A stretch of 64,000 bases of DNA from Escherichia coli (GTDB lineage Bacteria; Pseudomonadota; Gammaproteobacteria; Enterobacterales; Enterobacteriaceae). Position 1 is the first letter of the stretch, and each line of letters opens with the position of its first letter. A model generated the notes under the pieces. The model searched no databases and was not told the origin of the DNA. It was given only the letters and a program-made list of their open reading frames with translations. The DNA lies in the NCBI RefSeq assembly GCF_036507355.1, contig NZ_AP027877.1; one strand, written 5' to 3'. The position numbers and the translations under genes are program-made. Positions 20,030 to 22,555 of the stretch are shown here, piece after piece.

Positions 20030-22555
<2,526 letters not shown>

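Follow-up and report, generated by a model that had tools for sequence, protein, structure and literature searches.

A single-base insertion divides the dgcQ (yedQ) gene in the window, the whole 64,000-nucleotide stretch of Escherichia coli DNA analysed here, and it can be said with high confidence that the split gene is a genuine and recent +1 frameshift allele fixed in a small clonal lineage of E. coli. The gene is encoded on the plus strand and spans 1696 nt compared with 1695 nt in intact alleles. A full-length dgcQ query matched 5,363 of 5,426 complete E. coli genomes, and the closest match was 99.7% identical with 1,695 bases of the record aligned to the 1,696 bases of the query. Global alignment with dgcQ of E. 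coli 1332KP (L001:3001-4695), a comparison with a reference gene that had been called for in the initial annotation of the sequence, revealed one extra G and four substitutions. The extra G is located in the run at 21095-21097, equivalent to nt 1066 and codon 356 of the reference, which confirmed the initial proposal that the gene is split by a +1 insertion in a G run. Chance plays no part in this finding, since the extra G sets the gene apart, at a defined site, from thousands of orthologues. Deletion of one G restored a single frame, as had been anticipated for GG at this site, and the repaired gene encodes a 564-residue protein 100% identical to the intact E. coli DgcQ WP_001362558.1. Since the repaired protein is also identical to that of the 1332KP reference, all four substitutions are synonymous.

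The identity of the gene as dgcQ was established by alignment, synteny and profile score. The gene order yedI-yodC-dgcQ-yedP-yodD-dsrB-rcsA-fliR is that of annotated E. coli genomes and includes the conserved position between yodC and yedP that is expected of a DgcQ orthologue. The repaired 564-residue translation scored 1097.4 bits against the NCBIfam DgcQ equivalog NF011955 and covered positions 1-563 of the 564-residue model, for which the curated cut-off is 408 bits. As encoded in the window, the ORF of 407 residues matched positions 1-358 only with a score of 646.7 bits, and the ORF of 193 residues matched positions 372-563 with a score of 400.7 bits, slightly below the cut-off. The 356 codons assigned before the break and the 208 codons assigned after it had been added to 564, which is the length of intact DgcQ in both WP_001362558.1 and NF011955.

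The single polypeptide with the domain order TM1 - CHASE7 - TM2 - GGDEF is not encoded in the window, with TM2 and the GGDEF domain being located in another frame (Table 1). The reading frame changes exactly where the periplasmic part gives way to TM2, in agreement with the earlier placement of the split immediately before TM2, and the downstream frame is open from position 21072, directly after a TAA at 21069-21071. The maximum 19-residue Kyte-Doolittle mean was 2.11 for the native segment, consistent with the hydrophobic helix read previously from the downstream frame, versus 1.19 for the out-of-frame tail. The tail had been described as a non-hydrophobic stretch of 50 residues; it is indeed by far the less hydrophobic of the two, although its length is 51 residues. 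Both motifs expected of active GGDEF diguanylate cyclases, the A-site GG(D/E)EF and the I-site RxxD, are present. Since the +1 frameshift at codon 356 places TM2 and the GGDEF domain in the other frame, the gene is classified on its sequence as a pseudogene of the DgcQ family and not as a functional member.

Table 1. Positions of the parts of the split dgcQ gene and of two further inactivating changes in the window.
Feature	Position	Strand	Evidence
dgcQ (yedQ) pseudogene	20030..21725	+	99.7% identity to 1332KP dgcQ; yodC-dgcQ-yedP synteny; NF011955 score after repair
GGG run holding the one-base insertion, codon 356; GG in intact alleles	21095..21097	+	alignment; 61-mer and 33-mer queries
Upstream ORF, 407 aa, GTG start: native residues 1-356 (TM1, periplasmic sensor) and out-of-frame tail	20030..21253	+	ORF list; DgcQ profile
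Predicted TM1, residues 25-42	20102..20155	+	hydropathy scan, prediction only
CHASE7 periplasmic sensor domain, residues 41-227	20150..20710	+	Pfam PF17151, E = 5.9e-95
51-codon out-of-frame tail ending ...NAFI, then TAA 21251-21253	21098..21253	+	translation
TM2 coding segment, native residues 357-380, out of frame with the start codon	21099..21170	+	hydropathy scan
Downstream ORF, 193 aa from first ATG (native M372, mid-TM2), without upstream Shine-Dalgarno	21144..21725	+	ORF list; anti-SD duplex energy
GGDEF catalytic domain, native residues 398-557	21222..21701	+	Pfam PF00990, E = 4e-47
I-site RAQD, residues 468-471 of repaired protein, intact	21432-21443	+	motif coordinates
A-site GGEEF, residues 477-481 of repaired protein, intact	21459-21473	+	motif coordinates
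fliJ W111* (TGG to TAG)	gene 29668-30111, change 29780	-	only difference from TUM13936 fliJ
drpB (yedR) W27* (TGG to TGA)	gene 14647-14928, change 14727	+	only difference from reference

Homopolymer indels are the usual error of assembly and the allele occurs in none of the 5,426 complete genomes, both of which would be in accord with the extra G being an error of sequencing or assembly and the gene being intact in the organism. The run is however only 3 bases long, and the same GGG was found in two independent assemblies, one of them from another isolate. Logan contig ERR3330519_137, a product of run ERR3330519, matches the window at 100% identity over 7,224 bases with the GGG included. The NCBI draft GCA_905398585.1 also contains the GGG; over 21,224 bases, 2 SNPs and one additional 9-bp repeat unit in fliK separate it from the window and identify it as a different isolate. 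The exact 407-residue product is recorded on about five public contigs. Furthermore, the insertion is the only frame-breaking coding indel in the ~59 kb compared with the closest references; the remaining indels comprise a compensated pair in msrQ, a change in an intergenic T run, a 9-bp repeat in fliK that keeps the frame, and changes located in islands or non-coding DNA. This result, combined with the 54 genes found intact among the 57 checked (56 mapped reference genes and dgcQ), indicates that the window assembly is not error-ridden. An error was dismissed as very improbable on the basis of the two independent assemblies, and the GGG common to a second isolate and an independent assembly, together with the lack of another coding frameshift, indicates that a small clonal lineage has inherited the lesion.

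The existence of two ORFs, and nothing beyond it, agrees with an ancestral or stable alternative architecture in which sensor and cyclase are separate genes, a view that is next to inconceivable given the distribution of the allele. All complete genomes that contain the locus have GG at this position, a single 564-residue protein is encoded by the closest relatives of the sequence, and the first ORF closes with 51 out-of-frame residues that overlap the second ORF. Every match in the complete genomes to a 61-mer over the site was 60/61. GGG alleles masked by a nearby SNP among these matches were discounted with a 33-mer across the GGG, for which a megablast match is possible only via an exact 28-mer spanning the run; no such 28-mer is present in the 5,426 complete E. 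coli genomes. Two alleles of 1696 nt in the spread sample contain an additional T at codon 516 and have GG at the insertion site. The additional G at codon 356 was found only in the window, ERR3330519 and GCA_905398585.1. Since it is carried by no complete E. coli genome the GGG allele is derived, and the single-ORF form with GG, present in every complete genome examined, is by this distribution the ancestral state. Neither of the two observations named in the initial annotation as refuting the insertion, GG at 21095-21097 or an ancestral two-ORF arrangement, was made in these assemblies and genomes. The identity of the repaired protein to the intact allele in all residues and the absence of a second lesion further indicate that the inactivation is recent.

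Replication slippage would be the simplest source of the G gained by the GG run at codon 356. Translation from the native GTG is then expected to yield TM1, the periplasmic CHASE7 sensor region and 51 incorrect residues before the stop at 21251-21253, leaving TM2 and the cytoplasmic GGDEF domain uncoupled from the sensor. The signal-regulated diguanylate cyclase activity of DgcQ would be lost, and with it the share of DgcQ in the pool of c-di-GMP by which cellulose synthesis is activated and rotation of the flagella slowed. Judged from the reading frames, regulated DgcQ activity has very likely been lost; we infer likewise a loss of enzyme activity and any phenotype resulting from it.

Some function could nonetheless be retained by the split gene, either through a GGDEF fragment initiated internally at M372 or M387 or through rare +1 slippage on GGG-C, with unregulated or low-level cyclase activity as the outcome; the membrane-anchored periplasmic fragment may also persist by itself. 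The GGDEF domain is intact together with its RAQD and GGEEF motifs and contains no further lesions, a finding explained equally well by the recency of the lesion. ATG 21144 is without a Shine-Dalgarno sequence, the anti-SD duplex energy being -2.4 kcal/mol versus -8.0 kcal/mol for the native GTG, and a moderate SD-like match of -6.4 kcal/mol was found for ATG 21189 (native M387), from which a soluble GGDEF fragment could therefore be made. An isolated GGDEF domain that lacks a dimerising N-terminal module is, however, usually weakly active. Overexpression of the disrupted dgcQ, dgcE and dgcN genes of S. flexneri raised c-di-GMP, and since this dgcQ contains a premature stop the designation pseudogene does not always imply inactivity (PMC11327459). 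Translational restart has also been proposed for the yedQ allele of EAEC (PMC4287979). In the published alleles, however, an ATG is located 2-3 codons past the stop and the restart product retains TM2 and much of the sensor. The upstream frame in the window continues for 107 nt beyond ATG 21144 and does not stop until codon ~408, by which point the GGDEF domain, starting at codon 398 (21222), has already been entered, and translational coupling therefore cannot help. Termination-reinitiation as a source of the GGDEF domain was ruled out on the same grounds, because a restart coupled to termination within the domain cannot yield the whole catalytic domain. The shift site UUC GGG CAG contains no stop or rare codon, and the combination that defines programmed +1 frameshifting of the prfB type (slippery codon, slow or stop codon in the A site, SD-like stimulator and conservation) was not found. 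Programmed recoding is disfavoured by the lack of an evident slippery heptamer or stimulatory element and of conservation of the site in any other genome (0 of 5,426); programmed frameshifting and transcriptional slippage were rejected on this basis, the run also being too short. Residual function is considered unlikely on this evidence, and loss of regulated DgcQ activity is the preferred reading.

YedQ/DgcQ is one of two cyclases with the ability to activate cellulose synthesis independently of CsgD (PMC3281075), and expression of the protein from a plasmid restores cellulose in a dgcC mutant (PMC7397504). It is a verified diguanylate cyclase, the deletion of which results in more swimming in K-12 and lowers biofilm formation by CFT073 on glycerol (PMC3484386). 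A link of DgcQ to cellulose and motility is thus supported by the literature (PMC3281075, PMC3484386, PMC7397504). The initial annotation had assigned DgcQ to the control of both cellulose and curli; the connection to cellulose is borne out (PMC3281075, PMC3484386), whereas these papers give no support for a role in the control of curli, DgcQ not being described there as a curli regulator. The strain is predicted to contain one fewer sensor-coupled diguanylate cyclase and may be defective in the CsgD-independent activation of cellulose, which bears on the interpretation of its biofilm and Congo-red phenotypes.

Locus, synteny and domain order are those of intact E. coli DgcQ/YedQ, from which the window allele differs by the extra G that cuts the sensor off from both TM2 and the GGDEF domain. 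The yedQ/dgcQ gene of EAEC/O104:H4 is a natural nonsense allele with a stop at codon 312 and an ATG at codon 314 (PMC4287979, PMC11327459), and a 251-residue fragment matching this allele was found on at least 1000 public contigs. Both alleles contain a natural break upstream of the GGDEF domain that leaves the downstream GGDEF ORF intact. The nonsense codon of EAEC/O104:H4 however interrupts the periplasmic domain and is followed two codons on by an ATG, making plausible a coupled restart product with TM2 and GGDEF, whereas the frameshifted reading in the window runs beyond the possible restart sites. The dgcQ pseudogene S2095 of S. flexneri 2457T, overexpression of which raised c-di-GMP, has a stop at codon 56 and a Met at codon 59 (PMC11327459). 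Like the window allele it is a dgcQ that has degenerated in a genome of the E. coli type, but the stop is very early, the restart product would be nearly full length and the c-di-GMP genes of 2457T have decayed genome-wide, in contrast to 3 broken genes among the 57 checked in the window.

At least 13 other distinct natural lesions of dgcQ were found, none of which is the additional G at codon 356. Single bases are inserted at codons 36 (A), 353 (C), 516 (T) and 525 (G), and a CCC run at codon 363 has in one allele lost and in another gained one C; stops are located at codons 117, 362 and 450; and the larger lesions are a deletion of nt 876-1058, insertions of ISEc52 and IS1414, and one partial gene. 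The stop at codon 450 is that of TUM13936, the nearest E. coli over 25 kb, and the contigs found via the 193-residue fragment contain a deletion, the stop at codon 362, the extra C of codon 353, or the loss or gain of C at codon 363. An evenly spaced sample of complete genomes, in which indels, IS insertions and deletions were counted and nonsense alleles left out, contained a dgcQ lesion in 5 of 60 (+T at codon 516, n = 2; IS insertion, n = 2; partial gene, n = 1). Disruption of dgcQ is recurrent, common and already published, and the window allele is an ordinary recent gene loss. It adds one allele to the documented lineage-by-lineage trimming of the set of c-di-GMP enzymes in E. coli/Shigella, in which dgcQ is hit often, and opens no new question by itself.

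Mapping of 56 reference genes onto the window revealed two further inactivating changes, fliJ W111* and drpB W27* (Table 1), both of which are common to GCA_905398585.1. The lineage of the window therefore combines the dgcQ frameshift at codon 356 with fliJ W111*. The initial annotation had referred to dgcQ as a second lesion, a remark that fits the presence of fliJ W111* in the same window, presumably the first lesion meant. The predicted FliJ lacks the last 37 residues, and flagellar export is probably impaired. A 61-mer over fliJ W111* was present in 4 of the 5,186 complete E. coli genomes that gave a match. The allele also occurs on many public contigs, mostly with intact dgcQ, and the 110-residue product is indexed in 175 blocks of the public collection, the gene neighbourhoods being varied. 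The varied neighbourhoods suggest that fliJ W111* is either recurrent or spread by recombination. The drpB W27* allele was present in none of the 4,907 complete E. coli genomes that gave a match.

Nine of the unrelated loci fetched via fliJ W111* (L015-L024) included full-length dgcQ, and three of these contained a distinct dgcQ lesion of their own (two indels), namely +G at codon 525, +A at codon 36 and a stop at codon 117. The numbers, 3 of 9 versus 5 of 60 for indels, IS insertions and deletions in the even sample, are too small for calling an association. Loss of flagellar function and loss of dgcQ could conceivably be connected, but these small samples give the idea no statistical support; the broader proposal that dgcQ is a preferred target of adaptive loss and not of neutral decay, with the loss perhaps linked to that of flagellar function, is doubtful. 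If it were true, the input of DgcQ to the YcgR motor brake would have become dispensable or costly after the flagellar export apparatus was crippled.

Compared with TUM13936, the fliK gene on the minus strand has at 29332-29340 one more 9-bp tandem unit, in frame and reading CAGCCACCG on the plus strand. The sister isolate GCA_905398585.1 contains one unit more than the window, indicating that the repeat is fast-changing.

The window is a mosaic of positions 1-35700 and 38155-62260 with the boundary at an IS element. Over 25 kb of the first ~35 kb the best match to a complete genome is at most 98.8%, though dgcQ alone is 99.7% identical in other strains; from 38155 the DNA is ~99.2% identical to that of E. 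coli G4/9, with no difference in the proteins encoded by the 22 genes from yedL to pgsA. Two IS3-family copies, at 1-802 and 35673-37084, are present in opposite orientations with 99.9% identity to an element annotated in G4/9. The copy at the start of the window adjoins a truncated gene for a protein with Ig-like domains (yeeJ-type), and the other is located between fliE and the remnant of a leucine-rich-repeat gene. The single IS3-family copy in G4/9 joins shiA directly to the leucine-rich-repeat remnant, an arrangement which suggests an IS-mediated rearrangement between the two IS sites of the window. The lack of an exact match in complete genomes and the partly multicopy nature of the window had raised the suspicion of genome decay. 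Decay of the Shigella type was rejected as the context, the window containing only the two IS3-family copies, the gene order of E. coli and 54 intact genes of 57. The OmpC-family porin gene beside hchA (12809-14026, minus strand) is an intact ORF of 405 residues in the window, and the copy in TUM13936, the nearest reference, contains an internal stop and is listed there as a pseudogene.
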